DNA of 64,000 nt from Candidatus Latescibacterota bacterium (lineage in GTDB: Bacteria; Latescibacterota; UBA2968; GCA-2709665), in NCBI GenBank assembly GCA_965222075.1, contig OZ244937.1, positions 1,280,001 to 1,344,000 of the forward strand, given 5' to 3'. Below are positions 760 to 50,353 of the stretch, one piece after another; the first letter of the stretch is position 1; the number at the start of each line of letters is the position of its first letter. Made by a program: the position numbers and the translations under genes. Under the pieces are notes generated by a model. It saw only the letters and a program-made list of their open reading frames with translations. It had not been told where the DNA came from and searched no databases.

Positions 760-1916
760 ATCAAACGTTCGATTTCGAGAATCTCGTCGAGTTGTGTCGA
801 CGAACCCACGAGGAAACACAACGCTCGGCAGCGCGAGTTGTCGATCGCTCACTCGTGGCACGAAACTATCTGTTCGGCTGGTATATCGTCGAGTATGAAC
901 AGAACGGCGCGGACAGGGCGGAATACGGCAGCCAACTCCTGGACAGGGTCTCCAGTCGCCTGCAAAAGATCGGGATCAAGGGCAGTTCGGCGACCCGTCT
1001 GAAGCTCTACCGACGTTTCTATCAGCAGCAGAAGGGAATTGGGCCGACACTGTCGGCCCAATTGGCATCCCTGGCGTCCGTTGACGGAACTCCTGAGATT
1101 CGACCGACAGCGTCGGACGAATCCGTTTCCCCACTGTCCTCCGCATCGCGTCCCCTGGAAAACGCAATTGTCCTGCTCGAAGACCGATTCTCCCTGGGCT
1201 GGTCCCACTACGTCACCCTCCTGACCATCGACAACCCCGAAGAACGCCGTTTTTACGAGCTTGAGGCCGCGGGCAACGGCTGGAGCGTACGCGAGCTGGA
1301 GCGGCAAATCGCCAGCTCCCTGTACGAGCGGCTTGCACTAAGTCGTGACAAGGGGGAAGTTCGCCGGCTTGCCAGCGAGGGGCAGGTGATCGAAAAAGCA
1401 TCAGACCTGATCAAGAACCCGCTGGTGCTGGAGTTTCTTGGGTTGGAGGAAAAGCCCGCCTATTCAGAGAGTGAACTGGAAACGGCGATCATTGACCGGC
1501 TTCAGCACTTCTTGCTCGAGTTGGGCAAGGGGTTCCTGTTCGAGGCGCGGCAGAAGCGGTTTACTTTCGACAACAGCCATTTCCGCGTAGACCTCGTTTT
1601 CTACAACCGGCTGCTGCGCTGCTACGTTCTGATCGACCTCAAACGTGGCAAATTGACCCATCAGGACCTGGGCCAGATGCAAATGTACGTCAATTACTTC
1701 GACCGCTACGTGAAGACTGACGACGAACTTCCGACCATCGGCATCGTGCTCTGTGGCCGTAAGAACGATGCCATGGTTGAGCTGACACTACCGGAAGAAG
1801 CCAATATCTATGCATCAAAATACCAGCTCTATCTGCCGTCGAAACAAGAACTTGCAGCCCAACTGGAGAGTGTCTGGAGAGAACTTGAAAACCGGGAAGG
1901 CGAAGACAATAAATAA
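756..1916 (+). CDS. YhcG/DUF1016-family PD-(D/E)XK nuclease domain protein
   Basis: 'DRAEYGSQLL', 'LGWSHYVTLL', 'WSVRELERQI', 'FLLELGKGFLFEARQKR', 'VDLVFYNRLLRCYVLIDLK', 'DLGQMQMYVNY'. Confidence 0.9.
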   Translation: MNQTFDFENLVELCRRTHEETQRSAARVVDRSLVARNYLFGWYIVEYEQNGADRAEYGSQLLDRVSSRLQKIGIKGSSATRLKLYRRFYQQQKGIGPTLSAQLASLASVDGTPEIRPTASDESVSPLSSASRPLENAIVLLEDRFSLGWSHYVTLLTIDNPEERRFYELEAAGNGWSVRELERQIASSLYERLALSRDKGEVRRLASEGQVIEKASDLIKNPLVLEFLGLEEKPAYSESELETAIIDRLQHFLLELGKGFLFEARQKRFTFDNSHFRVDLVFYNRLLRCYVLIDLKRGKLTHQDLGQMQMYVNYFDRYVKTDDELPTIGIVLCGRKNDAMVELTLPEEANIYASKYQLYLPSKQELAAQLESVWRELENREGEDNK

Positions 1917-3685: not shown

Positions 3686-5565
3686 CTATGTCTCATGATC
3701 GTTGCCAAGAAGATCTAATCCTGACCGTGAGGGACTTTGCCGGTTGTGGCTGGAAGGCGGCATTGGCTGGGACTACCCGGGAAGACTATTACTCAATGTC
3801 GAACGCTTTCTTTTCTGCCGCCAAGCAGGCTATCAGCGAAGACCGCCAAGCTCATGGCAAGGTGCTGGAGTTGCTGGCTCATGTCTGTTCGATGATGCTG
3901 TCGTCCGACAGTATCAACGAGCCTTTCAAGCCCTTGACGGTGTTGGGTGGTCAGCGGTCGATGACCCCAGACGATTTATCCGAAGATGACGTCACCTTTT
4001 TCGTGCAGATCGTTGATTACATTGATGATCCGTGGCTCAAGGCACGTCTGGCCGATCTGGTCTGGCTCTTACAAAGCACCCGTGATGTCAAGTTCGCCTT
4101 GGCGGCTATCGATAGCTATCGGTCTATCCCGTTGGACACAGAGACCTGGGTACGTGACGGAGATGAATGCTGGCAGAGGGCAATCAATCTGGCTCGCCTG
4201 CTCAGAGCAGGAGCTGGCGAGCGTCTTGCCAAAATTGAAGCCTCGATCATCAAAGCATTCACGTCGGTGACGAGTCAGGATGGCTTTCTCGGCTATTGGT
4301 TAGCCGATCTGCTCAAGTCTAACGCCCTCGGAAAGGATCACTCAACCAAGATCGCGACAAAGCTCCAGTCTTTGGCTCACGAGTTTGACGTTGCAGGTGA
4401 GCTCCACAAAGCACGCGAATACTTCCAAGCATCAGCCGACTGGTTTAAGGTGTCTGAAGACGATGAGCAGTCAACTGCAATGACAGTCAGGGTAGCCGAG
4501 AACTGGGTCAAAGAGGCTGTCGCCAGATTGTCGTCGGACCAACCGAGTCACATGGTCGCCGTGACCTACTACGAGAATGCCATCCAGACTTACCGTACTA
4601 TTCCCAAATCAATACGTGCGCCGCATCGGGTGGAGGATCGAATTGTGGAGTTACGGAGGTATCTCAACGAATCTGGAAAGAAATCATTGGGTGAGATGGG
4701 TGTTATCCGCAGTCCTGGTGTGGACATCAGTCAAATTGTCAAAGATGCCCGTAATTCAGTGAGGGGCAAGGCGTTAGATGAGGCATTGAAGGCATTTGTC
4801 AACCAGCTTGAGGGCGAGAACACCAAGGAACTGCGCGAAAGTACGATTGAGCAAATGCGTAGCTATCCGGTGCAATCCTTGTTTTCCGGAACGTTAATGA
4901 GTCGTGATGGCCGCGTCATTGCAAAACAGCCTGGAACGGGTCTCAGCACCACACTCTCTGATGGCGATGAGGCTGATGACAACGAGGTGGTTATCCGCTC
5001 CAAGATGGTCGAAAATTACCGCTTTCATGTCGATCTTGCCGTTCGGGGTTACATCTGGCCTGCACAAGAGATTCTGCTTCTGGAACACCGCTTGCGGGAA
5101 GCCGATTTTGTCGATCTTGCCAGGCAATCTCCCATCGTGCCCACGGGGCGTGAACTGCTTTTCGGCAAAGCATTGTTCGCAGGTTATGACCGAGATTTTA
5201 TCACGGCTCTCCATATCCTGGTGCCACAGATCGAGCACATGGTGCGCTGCCACTTGAAACAAGCAGGAGTGCAAACGACAAATATAGACGTCAACGGCAT
5301 AGAGAATGAAAACGGTCTAAGCTCGCTTATGGATCTTCCACAGGCGGAAGAGATATTCGGCGAGGATCTGAGCTTTGAGATCAAGGCGCTGTTCTGCGAC
5401 CCCTTTGGGCCGAATCTCCGGAATAAACTCGCACACGGCTTGCTCGATGACAAGGAGTGTCAGTCTGTCTACGCGATCTATGCCTGGTGGTTTGGGTTGA
5501 AGCTCGTATTCTTTTGGAATGCTTTACGCATTGACGCCGAACAAAGCGAACAAAGCGAGGAGTAA
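3682..5565 (+). CDS. DUF4209-family protein with C-terminal HEPN-like RxxxxH motif
   Basis: 'ALHILVPQIEHMVR', 'FEIKALFCDPFGPNLRNKLAHGLL'; overlaps hsdS stop (ATGA). Confidence 0.75.
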   Translation: MTMSHDRCQEDLILTVRDFAGCGWKAALAGTTREDYYSMSNAFFSAAKQAISEDRQAHGKVLELLAHVCSMMLSSDSINEPFKPLTVLGGQRSMTPDDLSEDDVTFFVQIVDYIDDPWLKARLADLVWLLQSTRDVKFALAAIDSYRSIPLDTETWVRDGDECWQRAINLARLLRAGAGERLAKIEASIIKAFTSVTSQDGFLGYWLADLLKSNALGKDHSTKIATKLQSLAHEFDVAGELHKAREYFQASADWFKVSEDDEQSTAMTVRVAENWVKEAVARLSSDQPSHMVAVTYYENAIQTYRTIPKSIRAPHRVEDRIVELRRYLNESGKKSLGEMGVIRSPGVDISQIVKDARNSVRGKALDEALKAFVNQLEGENTKELRESTIEQMRSYPVQSLFSGTLMSRDGRVIAKQPGTGLSTTLSDGDEADDNEVVIRSKMVENYRFHVDLAVRGYIWPAQEILLLEHRLREADFVDLARQSPIVPTGRELLFGKALFAGYDRDFITALHILVPQIEHMVRCHLKQAGVQTTNIDVNGIENENGLSSLMDLPQAEEIFGEDLSFEIKALFCDPFGPNLRNKLAHGLLDDKECQSVYAIYAWWFGLKLVFFWNALRIDAEQSEQSEE

Positions 5566-17914: not shown

Positions 17915-18613
17915 CTACGGGGTATTCAAGCATCTGTATTTGAAGATTGTAAAGAGGATTTTCCAACCTGCTTTCAGGGTTCCTTTCACCGTACCGGTAA
18001 TTTTGGAAACGCCAATTCGACGTCGGTAGCTTACCGGCACCTCCTCTATTTTCAGTCCCTGCCTGGCCGCTTTGACCTGCATTTCCACGGTCCATCCAAA
18101 CGTCTTATCCTGCATATCCAGTTCTTTGAGTACCGGATAGCGAACCGCCCGGAAGGGTCCCAGGTCGGTATACCGCGTGCGGAAGAGACACCGGATGAGC
18201 CGGGTGGCCAGCCAGTTGCCGAACCAGGCCTGAGGCAGGAGCGCCCCGGGTTCCCTGCGGCCCAGGATGCGGGAACCGATCACGAGGTCGGCGCGGTGCT
18301 GGAGGATGGGGCCCACCAGATGGGGCATTTCGTCGGGGTGGTCGCTGTAGTCTCCGTCCAGAAAGACTACGATATCGGGCCGATTCAGGGCAGCCATACC
18401 CGCCAGACAGGCAAAGCCGTATCCTCTTTGGTCCTCCCGCACGATACGGGCGCCCATTTCGGCGGCCAGCCGGGCGGTTTGATCGGTTGACCCGTTGTCT
18501 ACCACCACGACCTCTGTGACAAGGCCGGAGGGGATATCGGCGATCACGTTCCGGATGGCCTCTTGTTCGTTGAACACGGGAATGATGACGGAGATGCGCG
18601 GAGAGGAGGACAT
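17915..18613 (-). CDS. Glycosyltransferase family 2
   Basis: 'ISVIIPVFNEQEAI', 'VVVDNGSTD', 'VFLDGDYSD', 'DLGPFRA'; only the C-terminal part of the 957-aa track ORF is real. Confidence 0.92.
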   Translation of the reverse strand: MSSSPRISVIIPVFNEQEAIRNVIADIPSGLVTEVVVVDNGSTDQTARLAAEMGARIVREDQRGYGFACLAGMAALNRPDIVVFLDGDYSDHPDEMPHLVGPILQHRADLVIGSRILGRREPGALLPQAWFGNWLATRLIRCLFRTRYTDLGPFRAVRYPVLKELDMQDKTFGWTVEMQVKAARQGLKIEEVPVSYRRRIGVSKITGTVKGTLKAGWKILFTIFKYRCLNTP

Positions 18614-18663
18614 GGGATTTCGGATCTCTGCTTTGCTGGATGCTACGTCTATACCGCCTCTTT

Positions 18664-19857
18664 CTAACCCCCAGACCCTGCTTTTCTGAGGGTCTCGGGG
18701 ACAAGGAGGGCAAAGGTGCCGACGGCCAGGAGGCCGATGCCGGAAATGGCAAAGGTGGCGGCGGAGAGGCTGAGGAGGTCTGCGATGCCCCCTACAACCA
18801 GCGGGCTGCCCATGTCCCCGCCATCTCCGATGAGCCGCCAGATGGCCAGGAATTCGCCTATGGATTCTCCGGGCGCCAGGTCGGCGCCCAGGGTCATCAT
18901 AGACCCCGAGCCGAGGCCGTTTCCCAGCCCGATGACGCTGGTGGCCAGGAGCAGGCCGAAAAAGCTGCCGGTGAACGGGATGAGGCTCATGCCCACCGTC
19001 TGAGTGAGGAAGCTGGGTACAGTGGCGTATTTTCGCCCGTACCGGTCCATCATCAGGCCGGCAGGGTAGAACATGGACATATCGAGGAAGGCGGAGACGC
19101 TGAGGATCCATCCGACGGCCTGGACGTTCAGCCCGATGATGTCGGCGGCGTAGAGCGGGACAATGACGTGCCGGCCTTTTCGGAGCGTCTGGGCAAAGAG
19201 CTGCCCCGAACCCGCTGTGGCCAGCTGCCGGTAGTGAGATTTGAAGACGCCAAAGAGGTGGCCCAGTTGTCCCTCTGGTGCGGAACCGGACACGCGGGTT
19301 TTTTCGATGGTGAGCGCCGAGGTGACGATCGTCAGAACGGCCAGTCCGGCATAGATGAGAAAGGCGCTCTTGAGCCCGTACAGGGCGCCAAACACACCCC
19401 CGACCGCGGGGCCTGCGAAGGTGCCGATGCGGTTGATGCCTCCAAAGACCGAGATGGCCCGGCCCCGCTGATAGGGGGATGTGACGCTGGCCAGATAGGT
19501 ATGGCGGGAGATGTTCCAGAGGGCGCCGCCGATTCCAGCGGCAAGACGATAGAGGACGACCTCGAAGACGGTCTGCGCCCAGACAAGGGCCAGGACGGAA
19601 AGGGCAACACAGGTGACGCCGAAGACCATAACCGGTTTTCTGCCGATTTTCCTGAGGAGGATGCCGGTGGGGAGATCGCCTGTCAGGTGCCCGATTCCTT
19701 CGGCGGCCAGGATGAGTCCGATCAGGCCATAAGAGGTGGCAAACGATTTGGCATAGAGGGGCAGGATGGGAATGATCATCCCGCGACCAAAGGAGAGAAT
19801 GAGGGTGGGGAGGTAGACGGGAAGGATGAGGCGGGTGCGGTTGTTTGCCTGGCTCAT
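18664..19857 (-). CDS. MFS transporter
   Basis: ~12 hydrophobic segments; 'LRKIGRK', 'MDRYGRK' loop motifs. Confidence 0.9.
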   Translation of the reverse strand: MSQANNRTRLILPVYLPTLILSFGRGMIIPILPLYAKSFATSYGLIGLILAAEGIGHLTGDLPTGILLRKIGRKPVMVFGVTCVALSVLALVWAQTVFEVVLYRLAAGIGGALWNISRHTYLASVTSPYQRGRAISVFGGINRIGTFAGPAVGGVFGALYGLKSAFLIYAGLAVLTIVTSALTIEKTRVSGSAPEGQLGHLFGVFKSHYRQLATAGSGQLFAQTLRKGRHVIVPLYAADIIGLNVQAVGWILSVSAFLDMSMFYPAGLMMDRYGRKYATVPSFLTQTVGMSLIPFTGSFFGLLLATSVIGLGNGLGSGSMMTLGADLAPGESIGEFLAIWRLIGDGGDMGSPLVVGGIADLLSLSAATFAISGIGLLAVGTFALLVPETLRKAGSGG

Positions 19858-19906
19858 GGACTTTCCGGGCGTTGAATTGGGGCGTATGAAGCTGAATAAG
19901 GCCTAT

Positions 19907-19935
19907 ATAGTAACGACCTGGGGGGGATTTGTCAA
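19907..19935 (-). promoter_or_regulatory. sigma70 promoter for MFS gene
   Basis: Minus strand TTGACA-N17-TACTAT. Confidence 0.75.
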
Positions 19936-20014
19936 GGAGGAGCTGGGGCATTGACACCCGATCAGGTGAGGCTGTTTCGCCACAACGGGAATGCATAGGG
20001 GTGTGGGAGGGTAT

Positions 20015-20737
20015 GTGACGCCCGAGACCGTCTTCTATGTGAGCGGGGTGATGTGGCTGGCTGCGAGCCTTCAGGGAGTGGCGGGGTTCGGATTTATGAT
20101 GCTGGCGGTACCGGGGTTGATCCTGGGGGCGCCGGCACAGGTGGTGGTTCCGGCCCTGATCCTGACCTGGCTGCCGCTTGGAACGGTGCAGGTGGTGCAG
20201 CTCCGCGCGAATGTAGACTGGGGGCTCCTGGCCTATCTGGTGGCCAGCGCCGCGTTCGGGTTGCCCCTGGGAGCGGTCATTTTGCGGGAGACCGATACGG
20301 AGACCATGCGGCGGGGAATTGGCGGGGTGTTGGTGGCGCTGGCCCTGCTTCTTCAGATGAAGCCCGGGGTGCCGCTTCGGCGTGAGGGGGCCGCCCGGGT
20401 GGGCGCAGGGTTTATCGCCGGGGTACTGGCGTCCGGCACGTCGGTGTCCGGGCCGCCCCTGGTGCTGCTGGGGGTGAAGCAGCGGTGGCAGGCGGACCGG
20501 TTTCGGGCGACGCTGCCGGCCTATTTTCTGGCGGTCTCCGTATTGTGCCTGCCCATCCACTGGGAAATGGATTTGCTGAACCGGGCAAGTGTTCAGCTGG
20601 CGGTAAGCGGCCTGCCCGGTGTGGTCCTGGGATATGCGACGGGAATCTGGCTGAAGGGGCGGGTCGGCGAAGCGTGGTTCCGGTGGGTGGTCCTGGGGAT
20701 GGTGATGGGGGGAGGGCTGGCGGCGGTGATGCTGTGA
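20015..20737 (+). CDS. TauE/SafE (TSUP) family membrane protein
   Basis: GGAGG RBS + GTG; 'QGVAGFGF', 'SVSGPPLV' repeats. Confidence 0.88.
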   Translation: MTPETVFYVSGVMWLAASLQGVAGFGFMMLAVPGLILGAPAQVVVPALILTWLPLGTVQVVQLRANVDWGLLAYLVASAAFGLPLGAVILRETDTETMRRGIGGVLVALALLLQMKPGVPLRREGAARVGAGFIAGVLASGTSVSGPPLVLLGVKQRWQADRFRATLPAYFLAVSVLCLPIHWEMDLLNRASVQLAVSGLPGVVLGYATGIWLKGRVGEAWFRWVVLGMVMGGGLAAVML

Positions 20738-20810
20738 AATAAGATATGGTTGTGCCACTTCACTGGAGGATCCGATGGACGCGGACATTTGGAGGGCAGG
20801 AGAAATCTCC

Positions 20811-20839
20811 TTGACATCCGGCAGGAAAAACCGTACATT
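20811..20839 (+). promoter_or_regulatory. sigma70 promoter
   Basis: TTGACA-N17-TACATT. Confidence 0.75.
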
Positions 20840-20845
20840 TTAACT

Positions 20846-21339
20846 TGAATCGAGAACCGATGTGATGTGCGGCAGCCATCCGAAAAGGTTCGGGTTTCGG
20901 CCGGGCGGTTTGCGTTACATGCATGCTTTGTCAGAGCTTTCGCTGACGGGAATCCAAATTCCAAAAGATGTGGATGGCGCAGGCCAAAGGCCTGATTGAA
21001 CAGAACCGCGGATGGGAGTTGCGGGCCGTGTGAACCTGCGATAGGAGGGGAATATGCCACCGGACAGGTTTGTGCGGCCGCGATGCGATGAGAGGTATCA
21101 GGAGTTTCATCGCGGCCGTTGAAACAAGGAGGTCATATGCAGTCGGCTGGATTTGTGCGGCCGCGACGGTGGTGAGCAGGGTTGTTCTTCGTCGCGGCCG
21201 TAGCGTTTTTCCAGCAGATATTCAGACGCTGATACGGCTGGCGGACGTGTGGAATCAACCCCGGGGGAGTATCAGCATCTGCCGAAATAGCCGACCGCCT
21301 GGGCTGAGGTAGCGATGCGTCCGGGCGGTTTTGTTCTTT
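20846..21339 (+). ncRNA. Putative structured RNA / long leader with tandem sORF-hairpin units
   Basis: Between promoter and terminator-like stem; multiple hairpins; two 83-bp units with a compensatory base change. Confidence 0.5.
21293..21339 (+). terminator. Intrinsic terminator/attenuator candidate
   Basis: 12-bp stem GACCGCCTGGGC/GTCCGGGCGGTT (3 G-U pairs) followed by TTGTTCTTT. Confidence 0.55.
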
Positions 21340-21388
21340 GTGAAGAAAGAAAGATGATCCACGATAATTCGGTGAGGGGAGGACGTGC

Positions 21389-22351
21389 ATGAAAATTGTA
21401 CTGTACCCACCGGTGAGCGAGGACCTGTATGAGCGGGTGCGGCAAACAGCGCCTGAGGCCGAGGTGATGATGGCGGATGAGGAGAACGTCATTGCGGCTG
21501 TGGCCGATGCGGAGGTGCTGTTCGGATTTTTTTCAAAGGAGGAGATCCAGGCTGCACAAAGGCTGAAGTGGATCCAGTCCACCAGCGCAGGGATGGAGAA
21601 GCAGCTCGATATTCCGGAGGTCCGGGACAGCGATGTGATCATCTGCAGCGCCAGCGGCCTGCACGCGATTCAGGTGGCCGAGCACGCCTGGGCGCTGACG
21701 GCGGCGCTCTTCCGCGGCCTGTACGTCTTTTTTCGGAACCAGCTTGCGCACCGGTGGCAGGGGGCCCCGCTGGCGGACCTGTACGGCGCAACGGCCGGCA
21801 TTGTGGGATTCGGGGGGATCGGCCGGCAGTACGCGCAGCGGGCGCAGGCTTTCAGGATGCGCATCCTGGCCGTGGACGTCCAGGGGGGAGACAAACCGGC
21901 GTTTGTGGAGTCGCTGTGGGGGATCGACCGCTTGGACGATCTGCTGAAGGAGGCGGATGTGGTATGCTTAGCCTGCCCGCACACACCGGAGACGGAGAAG
22001 CTGATCGACGCGAGGGCGCTGAAGCTGATGAAGAAGACGGCGTTCCTGGTCAATACGGCGCGGGGACCGGTCGTGGATGAGGCCGCGCTTATCGAGGCCC
22101 TGAAGGCGGGGGAGATCGCGGGTGCGGGGCTGGATGTGTTCGAGGTGGAGCCGCTGCCTGCGGAGAGCCCGCTGTGGGATATGGAGAATGTGATCGTTAC
22201 CACCCACTCGGCCGGCGGATCGAGCTACCGCCACCGGCGGACGGTGGAATTTTTCTGCGAGAACCTGAAACGCTACCTGGCCGGCGAACCGCTCCTGAAC
22301 GAGGTGGACAAGACGCTCGGGTATCCCCTGCTGGACCGGCGGGCACAATAA
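21389..22351 (+). CDS. D-2-hydroxyacid dehydrogenase (SerA/GhrA-like)
   Basis: 'GIVGFGGIG', 'VNTARG', 'GAGLDVFEVEPL', 'TTHSAG'. Confidence 0.92.
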   Translation: MKIVLYPPVSEDLYERVRQTAPEAEVMMADEENVIAAVADAEVLFGFFSKEEIQAAQRLKWIQSTSAGMEKQLDIPEVRDSDVIICSASGLHAIQVAEHAWALTAALFRGLYVFFRNQLAHRWQGAPLADLYGATAGIVGFGGIGRQYAQRAQAFRMRILAVDVQGGDKPAFVESLWGIDRLDDLLKEADVVCLACPHTPETEKLIDARALKLMKKTAFLVNTARGPVVDEAALIEALKAGEIAGAGLDVFEVEPLPAESPLWDMENVIVTTHSAGGSSYRHRRTVEFFCENLKRYLAGEPLLNEVDKTLGYPLLDRRAQ

Positions 22352-50276: not shown

Positions 50277-50353
50277 TGGTGCGGCTGCCAGGATTCGAAC
50301 CCGGAACCGTCTGATCCGTAGTCAGGTGCTCTATCCAGTTGAGCTACAGCCGC
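50277..50353 (-). tRNA. tRNA-Arg (anticodon ACG)
   Basis: GCGGCTG acceptor stem, D-loop TGG, anticodon loop CT-ACG-GA, GTTCGAATC T-loop, encoded CCA; 77 nt. Confidence 0.97.

Follow-up and report, generated by a model that had tools for sequence, protein, structure and literature searches.

The window, the whole stretch of 64,000 nucleotides analyzed here, carries two consecutive units of 83 nt followed by a ZTP riboswitch and a 2-hydroxyacid dehydrogenase gene, all on the forward (+) strand. Unit 1 consists of AGGAGG (21043-48), 5 nt, ATG (21054-56), 12 nt, TTTGTGCGGCCGCGA (21069-83), 26 nt, and TCGCGGCCGT (21110-19); unit 2 repeats this order with AGGAGG (21127-32), 4 nt, ATG (21137-39), 12 nt, TTTGTGCGGCCGCGA (21152-66), 25 nt, and TCGCGGCCGT (21192-21201). 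Reading of the sequence confirmed the pair exactly as given in the initial annotation, together with the compensatory change between the stems (GATG/CATC versus GACG/CGTC) and the translations of both open reading frames (ORFs), i.e., MPPDRFVRPRCDERYQEFHRGR plus a stop codon (21054-21122) and MQSAGFVRPRRW plus a stop codon (21137-21175). A repeat search returned the period of 83 nt as direct repeats D2 (32 nt, 78% identity) and D5, and both hairpins as inverted repeats I1 (18-nt arms, 83% complementary) and I4 (11-nt arms, 100%). The minimum free energy (MFE) of the two units, -73.3 kcal/mol (z -3.67), was reached by 0/200 dinucleotide shuffles. Their loops had been called unrelated; they are variable, but TGAG.AGG occurs in both, and the units therefore look like diverged duplicates along their whole length. 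A degenerate unit end suspected at ~21006-21036 is real and corresponds to a conserved linker of the family, GAGTTGCGGGCCG, which is invariant in the first 6 homologs and, with its variable tail, makes up segment S1 (21016-21038).

The units are the 3' third of a transcription unit of ~365 nt (about 20846-21210), both ends of which are predicted rather than mapped. The strong, consensus-like promoter predicted ahead of it (TTGACA, 17 nt, TACATT; 20811-20839) has 10/12 matches, two such sites being found against 0.3 expected, and 16 homologous loci of the long type show the same arrangement at 147-197 nt 5' of the core. The predicted primary RNA comprises a 5' domain, the linker, and two modules, each made of a Shine-Dalgarno (SD) site, an ORF, and a hairpin. 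Its MFE is -153.6 kcal/mol (z -3.29; 0/100 shuffles reach it), and homologs running from promoter to terminator occur at G001, G004, G003, L023, G037, and L024. Metatranscriptome contigs from four runs of one study span 20858-21510 at a word depth of 418-1525, with a depth of 0 over the flank at 20400-20807 and of 0-4.2 past 21522; such contigs reveal neither ends, strand, nor local depth. They start at 20858-20866 (in a single run, 31 letters ahead of 20866 do not match) and continue through hairpin 2 and through the riboswitch terminator. Scanning between 20866 and the downstream gene found no further promoter-like site. The RNA is highly expressed, structured, and single-copy, and the dehydrogenase operon with its ZTP riboswitch appears to be transcribed through the element in this genome.

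Architecture of the RNA and of its alternative folds

Comparative alignment defines a 5' domain of ~140 nt that is predicted to be closed by a covarying long-range helix, P1. Its 5' strand (CCATCC, GAAAA, GGTTC; 20876-20891) pairs with the 3' strand at 21003-21015 (GAACC, GC, GGATGG). In a MAFFT alignment of 17 sequences that had not been fitted to the model, the two halves of P1 were 86.3% and 96.5% paired, with 5/6 and 3/5 pairs changed on both sides, and the single-sequence MFE fold also recovers the helix. Within the domain (20930-20994), the covariation alignment places three local hairpins, GTCAG/CTGAC (20930-47), GGAAT/ATTCC (20949-62), and CAGGCC/GGCCTG (20980-94), with moderate support (68.9%, 80.0%, and 52.5% of cells paired) in a region where the alignment is uncertain. 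A competing local hairpin that RNAalifold had placed in the model (21003-13/21018-27) was discarded, as the unfitted alignment was 71.2% paired there versus 72.7% in shuffles.

Hairpin 1 (segments S2 and S3; 21068-21125, repeat I1) has a core stem that begins 20-21 nt past the A of the ATG. In an alignment fitted to the model, 11/11 of its pairs are changed on both sides and 94.5% are paired, versus 26-50% with slid partner columns; this covariation includes G-U pairs on the + strand. The second SD site (AGGAGG, 21127-21132) follows, and locus comparison found SD2 and ATG2 between hairpin 1 and the terminator in 2/2 loci of genus g1, 1/1 of g4, 13/16 of g6, and 0/2 of g3. Micro-ORF 2 (21137-21175, 12 codons) is, by repeat D2, a diverged copy of its counterpart in unit 1 that lacks Pro-Pro, and it terminates at a stop codon within the hairpin 2 loop. 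The G004 version reads MQDEYVRSRRW and differs by an in-frame 3-nt indel that leaves the stop unchanged.

Hairpin 2 (segments S4 and S5, repeat I4) and the adjoining TTTTT (21206-10) occupy 21154-21210 and likely serve the element as a leaky intrinsic terminator. In g3 and g6, homologous GGCCGCGA/TCGCGGCC stems likewise precede U-runs; a simple terminator scan did not flag hairpin 2, whose perfect stem ends 4-5 nt ahead of the U-run. The successive pairings S1:S2, S2:S3, S3:S4, and S4:S5 range from -21.5 to -27.3 kcal/mol, with -27.3 kcal/mol for S4:S5 and -23.3 kcal/mol for the complementarity between linker S1 and the 5' arm of hairpin 1. Alternative folds of the element are thus possible, because its five GC-rich segments share the palindrome GCGGCCGC and can pair mutually. 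All S1 substitutions in G001 and G004 (5/5) preserve the S1:S2 pairing; family-wide, no covariation of this anti-hairpin was found (56.3% paired vs 55.4% in shuffles, 110/500). GGAGG can also pair with CCNCC in four pairs (helix 2 of the model), and these columns are invariant.

Distribution and genomic neighborhood

The RNA is conserved, as far as sequence comparison can tell, across one class labelled Candidatus Latescibacterota. A covariance model found the core in 50/151 genomes of the phylum, usually in one copy: 3/18 in family f1, 28/30 in f2, 17/64 in f3, 1/2 in f4, and 0/36 in ten other families, the genome studied here completing the count. The same search found it in 0/15 genomes of g2, a genus of the same family. 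BLAST-level searches of relatives reached 3 further genomes (G001, G003, and G004) and exact-pattern scans 5 genome contigs and 2 metagenome contigs, so that the breadth of the family is visible only with a covariance model. The whole arrangement is kept in G001, of the same genus (93% identity across the 411-nt element), and in G004, of another genus (75% identity). Further units, for which the initial annotation had proposed a search, are found in relatives and nowhere else in the 5.36-Mb genome: the two units are the sole occurrences of the exact arm-loop-arm pattern, and the 15-mer has 8 (+) and 7 (-) matches with up to 2 mismatches, the exact ones being those of the two units. No Rfam 15 family matches the element at E ≤10 in the window or at E ≤5 in 14 homologous loci, and a literature search covering articles apart from their supplementary files found no description of this RNA family.

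Members vary in their makeup, with one-module, two-module, and three-module forms. In short-type members (g22, L060, and L062), an SD-Met-Pro-Pro-hairpin module lies 14-28 nt past the promoter with no 5' domain, and g18 has ~70 nt of other sequence ahead of the core. Because of these members, the SD-Met-Pro-Pro module rather than the 5' domain is the universal part.

Here, the element is followed by the ZTP riboswitch (21224-21311; RF01750, 53.3 bits vs a gathering score of 39), by a stem, CCGCCTGGGC/GTCCGGGCGG, that with its T-run reads as a putative riboswitch terminator (21295-21339; missed by the scan, its loop being over the limit), and by the dehydrogenase gene as the first downstream gene (21389-22351; Pfam 2-Hacid_dh_C, E 7.4e-58). 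The long overlapping ORFs at 21133-21642 (-), 20593-21060 (-), and 21070-21312 (+) match no Pfam family. Ten loci tested for the gene 3' of the element gave CBS in 4, an epimerase in 2, AlaDh_PNT in 1, DegT in 1, and sigma-70 in 2, and in G004 the element is followed by an additional strong terminator, a promoter, and an unrelated gene. No conserved downstream gene was found, nor any proline or EF-P gene among those tested or at this locus. The general role of the element is therefore not that of a dedicated cis-attenuator. As for housekeeping RNAs, those for tmRNA, SRP, and RNase P are located elsewhere in the genome and no 6S RNA was found there with RF00013; the element is a multi-hairpin RNA with SD-AUG, not a rod with a central bubble, and was rejected as a member of this group.

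The Met-Pro-Pro module

The invariant feature of the family, as read from aligned sequences, is GGAGG, a spacer, and ATG-CCR-CCN, which would encode Met-Pro-Pro. An SD site, a spacer of 3-9 nt, a start codon, and CCN-CCN are present in 41/45 matches of the covariance model, which was built from ATGCCACCGG-containing sequences and is biased toward that motif; among the remaining 4, 2 are antisense artefacts of the palindrome and 1 is probably false. The spacer between GGAGG and ATG is 5 nt in 23/41 members, and each GGAGG column, represented here by SD site 1 (AGGAGG, 21043-21048), is kept in 34-37/37 aligned members. Conservation of the ribosome-binding site, of its spacing, and of the ATG was correctly anticipated in the initial annotation, which also singled out FVRPR, the wrong feature. 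That pentapeptide simply results from translating the 5' stem arm (15 nt) and becomes YVRSR in unit 2 of G004, the nearest other genus. In micro-ORF 1 (21054-21122), Met-Pro-Pro is the sole family-conserved part.

All 41 ORFs begin with Met-Pro-Pro, from ATG in 40 cases and TTG in 1. Codon 2 is CCA (30) or CCG (11) and codon 3 is CCG (27), CCT (6), CCA (5), or CCC (3), while residue 4 is Asp in 16, Gly in 12 (Asp or Gly in 28/41), Ile in 6, and others in 7. At the nucleotide level, bases 1 and 2 of both Pro codons are invariant (37/37 aligned) and variation is confined to their third bases (A27/G10 and G25/T6/A5/C1). CCC and CCT never occur at codon 2 but do occur at codon 3, and the base 3' of codon 3 is never C. 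The CCC/U-C sequon is described as frameshift-prone in E. coli (PMC8129111), and the base choice at codons 2 and 3 would fit selection against it. PPD and PPG count among the typical EF-P-dependent pause motifs (PMC4140641), and an EF-P gene is present in the genome. Spacing from ATG to stem is constant in most aligned sequences; the spacer from the prolines to the stem is 12 nt in most and variable in sequence. The distal peptide is unconserved (6-32 codons, unrelated sequences), and the stop codon falls before the hairpin, in its 5' arm, in its loop, or after it, depending on the lineage. Judged on this basis, the element has two features of leader peptides, a putative short ORF with a ribosome-binding site and start codon and presumptive tandem regulatory codons (CCR-CCN at codons 2-3, 41/41), the latter absent from unit 2. 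Elsewhere in the genome there are 57 SD-start-Pro-Pro sites, 17 of them with ORFs of up to 35 codons; five were inspected and look like chance, four being in coding-like sequence and one having no hairpin after it.

Candidate functions and relation to known systems

The reading that best accommodates these data, for and against which we see about equal weight, is that of an attenuator-like RNA that senses translation, a ribosome pause at Pro-Pro being what would decide hairpin folding. Ribosomes starting on micro-ORF 1 would pause at Met-Pro-Pro-Asp, a sequence of the type whose translation depends on elongation factor P. While the second Pro occupies the P site, the paused ribosome would reach almost to hairpin 1, so that hairpin 1 and then hairpin 2 could fold and transcripts would tend to end at 21210. 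A ribosome that moves past the prolines would instead melt hairpin 1 and terminate at the TGA that adjoins this hairpin and precedes SD site 2 by 4 nt. Termination there would allow translation of micro-ORF 2, up to its stop in the loop of hairpin 2, and the ribosome on micro-ORF 2 would hold the 5' arm of that hairpin, so that transcription would continue into the riboswitch and the operon of the dehydrogenase. EF-P is reported to prevent intrinsic termination downstream of polyproline (PMC5021804). A further input may come from the 5' domain. Counting against this reading are the variety of downstream genes, the family-wide lack of covariation at S1:S2, a terminator hairpin short of textbook form through which RNA contigs continue, the loci of g6 (3/16) and g3 (2/2) that lack SD2 and ATG2, and the shifting place of the stop codon relative to the hairpin. 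Among the three functions proposed in the initial annotation, ribosome-stalling leader peptides were thus the best fit, and micropeptides and guide loops fared poorly (see below).

A broader formulation, which we advance tentatively and with more doubt than confidence, is that the family is a new class of abundant regulatory RNA that monitors ribosome elongation at Pro-Pro and hence EF-P or prolyl-tRNA status. It would be a stand-alone, portable unit in which a Met-Pro-Pro mini-gene, one ribosome footprint 5' of a hairpin, is coupled to the covarying 5' domain, and its output would be the fate of the RNA itself (a short stable small RNA vs read-through, or ribosome sequestration) rather than one operon.

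Less likely is an untranslated structured small RNA that acts in trans via its 5' domain, with hairpins for stability or termination and with GGAGG, AUG, and CC.CC serving as RNA-level motifs (an SD/anti-SD mini-helix, or a decoy for 30S or a protein). An RNA-level reason for CC.CC is possible because GGAGG can pair with the invariant CCNCC, which speaks against the translation-sensing reading, and the 4 pairs of helix 2 join a promoter and terminator of its own, neighbor genes that differ by lineage, great abundance relative to the flanks, an unconstrained distal peptide, and a covarying 5' domain on the side of such an RNA. However, a mini-helix needs no invariant ATG (TTG once) at the canonical distance from GGAGG, and no member has a U facing the A of GGAGG (the base there is A or G), which leaves the helix unimproved throughout. 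Variation at third positions only, with CCC/CCT avoided only before C, is codon-like in the light of the sequon described in PMC8129111, and the 12-nt spacer from the prolines to the stem keeps its length in most sequences and not its sequence.

An orphan riboswitch or protein-binding leader is a shade more improbable. Here the domain closed by P1 would be the sensor, the units would be an expression platform for micro-ORF translation and termination, and Pro-Pro would have no sensing role. The layout does resemble an aptamer followed by a switching sequence, with P1 covarying and its 3' strand directly 5' of the conserved linker, itself complementary to the 5' arm of hairpin 1. Against it stand the lack of an Rfam family match, the short-type members with no 5' domain, the substitute sequence in g18, and the unsupported alternative local hairpin.

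That the units are two genes for functional micropeptides sharing FVRPR is very improbable, even though both ORFs have a good SD site and an ATG and, between the genome studied (G000) and G004, ORF 1 stays in frame (3 synonymous against 3 non-synonymous codon changes) and the 3-nt indel of ORF 2 is in frame. The C-to-T change behind YVRSR retains a G-U pair, other lineages encode unrelated peptides, and within one genus (G003 and L023/L028, g3) nucleotides are kept and reading frames differ. Scarcely credible is a dispersed REP-like repeat (the alternative by which the initial annotation would have been refuted), a DNA-level palindromic operator array, or a set of stem-held guide loops: the GCGGCCGC palindrome of the arms and a weak model score on the antisense strand speak for this group, but the genome has a single locus (1 covariance-model match), the G-U pairs in the arm covariation would be mismatches on the opposite strand, and the loops are unconserved, with targets no better than chance (best own-genome matches of 12-14 nt, E at least 0.2).

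Among known systems, the closest in logic are the Salmonella mgtCBR leader, with tandem attenuators and a Pro-codon ORF (PMC3641672), and the mgtA leader with its ORF mgtL. Like the element, the mgtCBR leader has two short ORFs in a row (mgtM and the proline-codon-rich mgtP) whose translation is expected to set stem-loops; one ORF is proline-codon dependent, and the reported signals are EF-P and proline-charged tRNA (PMC3641672, PMC5299641, PMC6460261). There is no homology in sequence or structure, and the element differs in having its prolines at codons 2-3, right after the start, its own promoter and terminator, varied downstream genes, and a covarying 140-nt 5' domain. The element resembles classical attenuators (trp, his, leu, and pheL) in its SD site, its short ORF with tandem identical codons, and its likely terminator, and may also share their mutually exclusive hairpins, for which the pairing energies leave room; no cognate biosynthetic operon lies 3' of it. 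The lone Rfam leader match in the homologous loci, Leu_leader in L051 (2109-2181), lies outside the element and below threshold (28.2 vs 50 bits). Guanidine-II (mini-ykkC) RNAs have two short hairpins with conserved ACGR tetraloops; the element, with unconserved loops of 21-22 nt and no Rfam match, was rejected as one of this type. In Sinorhizobium, the transcript of an attenuator encoding the leader peptide peTrpL is described as a small RNA in its own right, rnTrpL (PMC7968998); it derives from a trp attenuator with Trp codons. Consecutive-proline pausing as a regulatory signal is shared with RAPP-like arrest peptides and EF-P-dependent PPX pauses (PMC12992588, PMC4140641); as these sources describe them, RAPP motifs are C-terminal in longer arrest peptides 5' of protein-localization genes, whereas the motif of the element is N-terminal in ORFs of 6-32 codons.

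If the translation-sensing reading is true, a class of uncultivated bacteria has an undescribed, highly expressed RNA with a single universal feature, a hairpin adjoined by a translated Met-Pro-Pro start. It would be a natural compact sensor of diproline ribosome pausing, hence of EF-P or prolyl-tRNA status. The mgtCBR and mgtA leaders, the known cases of control of this type, are individual loci of enterobacteria. Dozens of diverged members would make design rules (the spacing from Pro-Pro to the stem, the position of the stop, and duplication of the module) testable by comparison, and the helix-closed covarying 5' domain makes the family a candidate structured RNA family additional to Rfam 15. 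In this genome, the ZTP riboswitch is an immediate neighbor on the same transcript yet a separate element, and two RNA control devices would act in series on the dehydrogenase operon. The riboswitch is absent from other members of the family, and G004 has it 1.6 kb from the element, beyond another gene and 5' of a gene with a methionine-synthase-like N terminus as judged by eye.

A tandem unit within a larger RNA element

The two tandem 83-nt units at 21043-21205 are part of a larger, separable element, a predicted RNA of ~365 nt (about 20846-21210, + strand) composed of a 5' domain, a linker and two modules, each with a Shine-Dalgarno (SD) site, a micro-ORF and a hairpin. The initial annotation described this stretch exactly as it reads: in unit 1, AGGAGG (21043-48), 5 nt, ATG (21054), 12 nt and the arms TTTGTGCGGCCGCGA (21069-83) and TCGCGGCCGT (21110-19) around a 26-nt loop; in unit 2, a repeat of the same at +83 nt with a 4-nt spacer and a 25-nt loop. 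A repeat search of the window recovered the direct repeat and both hairpins, and the MFE of the two units (-73.3 kcal/mol, z -3.67) was equaled by none of 200 shuffles. A pattern search found no arm-loop-arm copies beyond these two in the 5.36-Mb genome, so the units are not a dispersed REP, the case that the annotation had set against its own reading. Unit 2 has visibly diverged from unit 1, of which it is a copy (78% identity across 32 nt, arms identical), and has lost the Pro-Pro codons.

In the window, the element follows a TauE-family gene (19991-20737, +) and a consensus-like promoter (TTGACA, 17 nt, TACATT) at 20811-20839 (+); the promoter scan found no other + strand promoter-like site between the latter and the 2-hydroxyacid dehydrogenase gene (21389-22351, +), which precedes a DUF1015 gene. 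Downstream of the element lie a ZTP riboswitch (21224-21311, +; RF01750, 53.3 bits versus a gathering score of 39) and a terminator-like stem plus T-run, read by eye at 21295-21339 (+). A 957-codon minus-strand ORF (17915-20788) overlaps the TauE gene; its GT2 domain is confined to residues 733-890, and the long stretch before that is probably an artefactual extension through GC-rich DNA. The window also carries a tRNA gene (50280-50353, -; RF00005, 63.3 bits).

The element is 93% identical across 411 nt in a genome of the same genus (G001). In a genome of another genus (G004), identity is 75% over a region that includes the promoter, some 200 nt of leader and the two units. A canonical terminator comes next there, then a new promoter and, after it, an unrelated gene of 462 codons; the homologous ZTP riboswitch lies 1.6 kb further on. 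Five features persist in more distant versions (G003, L023, G037 and L024): the promoter, GGCAGCCATCCGAAA as a 5' motif, a GAGTTGNGGGCC linker, GGAGGG-N3-5-ATGCCACCGG and a hairpin that contains CGGCCG and precedes a run of Us. The G004 riboswitch (locus L012, reverse strand, ~4848-4969) is 86% identical to that of the window and was retained while the genes behind it changed, from the dehydrogenase/DUF1015 operon in the window to a different gene whose N-terminus, judged by eye, resembles methionine synthase. Some introns insert behind terminators; reminiscent of this, the G003 locus (L008, reverse strand) has a group II intron-like sequence with a domain V-like motif directly after the element's terminator hairpin (~1660-2000); RF00029 scored 28 bits at 1070-1141 (-) of L008, below its gathering score of 40 (E 0.063).

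Hairpin 1 showed both-sided changes at 11 of 11 pairs and was 94.5% paired, versus 26-50% with slid partners, in an alignment that was fitted to the model and thus biased toward it; its G-U pairs assign the structure to + strand RNA. A long-range helix, P1, closes the 5' domain; its 5' strand is 20876-81 and 20887-91, its 3' strand 21003-07 and 21010-15. In an unfitted MAFFT alignment of 17 sequences, the P1 halves were 86.3% and 96.5% paired, with both-sided changes at 5/6 and 3/5 pairs, and the covariation of the whole five-helix structure, P1 included, was reached by 0/500 shuffles. Single-sequence MFE folding also recovered P1; a local hairpin proposed by RNAalifold at 21003-27 was unsupported when tested. 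Five GC-rich segments, namely, the linker with its tail (S1) and the arms of hairpins 1 (S2/S3) and 2 (S4/S5), are all mutually pairable, successive pairings amounting to -23.3 (S1:S2), -26.1 (S2:S3), -21.5 (S3:S4) and -27.3 (S4:S5) kcal/mol. All five S1 substitutions in G001 and G004 preserve S1:S2 pairing, for which the family-wide covariation test was neutral.

The conserved Met-Pro-Pro start

The annotation's interpretation is supported in part: its stalling-leader option fits our data, with Met-Pro-Pro rather than FVRPR as the conserved motif. An SD, a 3-9-nt spacer (5 nt in 23/41), a start codon and two proline codons occur in 41 of 45 model matches (42 loci); the remainder are two antisense palindrome artefacts, a second copy in G007 with SD and GTG but without Pro-Pro, and a probably spurious match within a GC-rich ORF. 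The peptides (6-32 codons) differ among members after residue 4, and two sequences of one genus keep the nucleotides in different reading frames; FVRPR is therefore merely the 5' stem arm translated in frame. It reads YVRSR in unit 2 of G004, where a C-to-T change preserves a G-U pair.

Across the 37-row alignment, the GGAGG columns are each retained in 34-37 rows, the start codon has A in 36 (one TTG) and T and G in all, and both CC pairs of the proline codons are invariant. The GGAGG could pair with CCNCC, columns that never vary, and it is thus possible that the element is untranslated. In the proline codons only the third positions vary, as A27/G10 in codon 2 and G25/T6/A5/C1 in codon 3: CCC and CCT are absent from codon 2, which precedes a C, but occur at codon 3, after which no C is ever seen. 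Judged from sequence, this pattern is as expected from selection against the CCC/U-C sequon, described as frameshift-prone in E. coli (PMC8129111), and fits translation. The same holds for the preference for Asp (16/41) or Gly (12/41) at residue 4, PPD and PPG being given as typical EF-P-dependent pause motifs, the latter with the second Pro in the P site (PMC4140641). EF-P is encoded in the genome.

The two-module layout, in which ORF 1 runs through hairpin 1 to a stop just after it and SD2-ATG2, a short ORF and a terminator follow, is old. SD2/ATG2 are present in 2/2 (g1), 1/1 (g4) and 0/2 (g3) sequences of genera of the window's own family and in 13/16 of genus g6, where the ORF codes MTCST* and variants. 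Other lineages have a single hairpin doubling as terminator. The ORF has nine codons, MPPxxxxR(L/P)*, in family f3 (11 sequences; stop within the 5' arm), six in genus g10 and twelve in g8 (stop in the loop). In short-type members (g22, L060 and L062), 14-28 nt separate the promoter from the module, and a different domain lies downstream. At L069 (G118, reverse strand, 485-693), a locus of another lineage, two full tandem SD-ATG-CCA-CCC-GAY-hairpin modules lie just downstream of a third ATG-CCA start, apparently through independent duplication of the module. These varied layouts indicate that the SD-Met-Pro-Pro-hairpin module is the universal, duplicable part.

Further SD-preceded micro-ORFs of 6-7 codons (MPRPDT*, MPTRPDT* and MHRPDT*; starts TTG, GTG or ATG) end in Arg-Pro-Asp-Thr-stop upstream of the module in g10 (L061, L066 and L073) and g11 (L051). 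They vary at third positions alone (Arg CGT/CGC, Pro CCC/CCA/CCT, Thr ACG/ACA/ACT; stop TAG/TAA), at the nucleotide level a coding-like signature. Elsewhere in the window's own genome, a seemingly intergenic GGAGG, 6 nt, ATG-CCA-CCA-TAA (Met-Pro-Pro-stop) at C1:1023435 (-) is followed by no hairpin and may be due to chance.

Distribution and expression of the family

The element represents an RNA family that is new and widespread within an uncultivated class. When 151 genomes sampled from the phylum were searched with a covariance model of its 123-nt core (window 21003-21125), 50 had a match, almost always in a single copy: the own genome (1/1), 28/30 genomes of family f2 (genus g6, 20/20), 17/64 of f3, 3/18 of f1 (genus g2, 0/15), 1/2 of f4 and 0/36 of ten other families. 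Genus g2, the largest of the window's own family (15 genomes, 92-100% complete), is unmatched, while its sister genera g1, g3 and g4 are matched, which may reflect loss in this one lineage or strong divergence. Searches of the window and of 14 homologous loci gave no Rfam 15 match to the element, and a full-text literature search found no published description. tmRNA, SRP RNA and RNase P RNA are located elsewhere in the genome. 6S RNA (RF00013) went undetected there, weak evidence of absence given that RF00013 matches just 5/14 control genomes; the architecture of the element is not 6S-like.

Contigs of four metatranscriptome runs from one study, which cannot show ends, strand or local depth, span 20858/20866 to 21453-21510 at word depths of 418-1525. 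Bins 20400-20807 had depth 0 in all four runs and those past 21522 had 0-4.2; one run carries 31 unlike letters before 20866. This coverage fits the predicted promoter and shows a very abundant RNA that extends past the two hairpins and the riboswitch and about 60-120 nt into the dehydrogenase ORF. There, the deep contigs of all four runs end as depth falls from >400 to 0-4, through either accumulation of a stable 5' fragment or a processing site.

A putative translational relay

In most sequences, the stem starts 20-21 nt past the A of ATG, so a ribosome pausing while Pro 3 occupies the P site would end just short of it, and one advancing past Pro-Pro would have to melt hairpin 1. In the window, the ORF 1 stop directly follows hairpin 1, 4 nt upstream of SD2, and that of ORF 2 lies in the hairpin 2 loop, an arrangement from which we propose a two-step relay. 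Passage through Pro-Pro would allow completion of ORF 1 and translation of ORF 2, which in turn would keep hairpin 2 unfolded for transcriptional read-through; upon a Pro-Pro pause, both hairpins would fold. Precedents are the mgtCBR leader, described as having tandem attenuators, one with a proline-codon ORF (PMC3641672), and the reported rise of intrinsic termination downstream of polyproline upon EF-P loss (PMC5021804). The family is akin in logic to leader-ORF attenuators, yet outside every described family. Three features count against a simple cis-attenuator: the heterogeneous downstream genes (10 tested: CBS 4, epimerase 2, AlaDh_PNT 1, DegT 1 and sigma-70 2), the extra terminator behind the element in G004 and the non-canonical character of hairpin 2 as a terminator, which the terminator scan did not flag. 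The element may therefore work as an independent RNA, with its own fate as the output.
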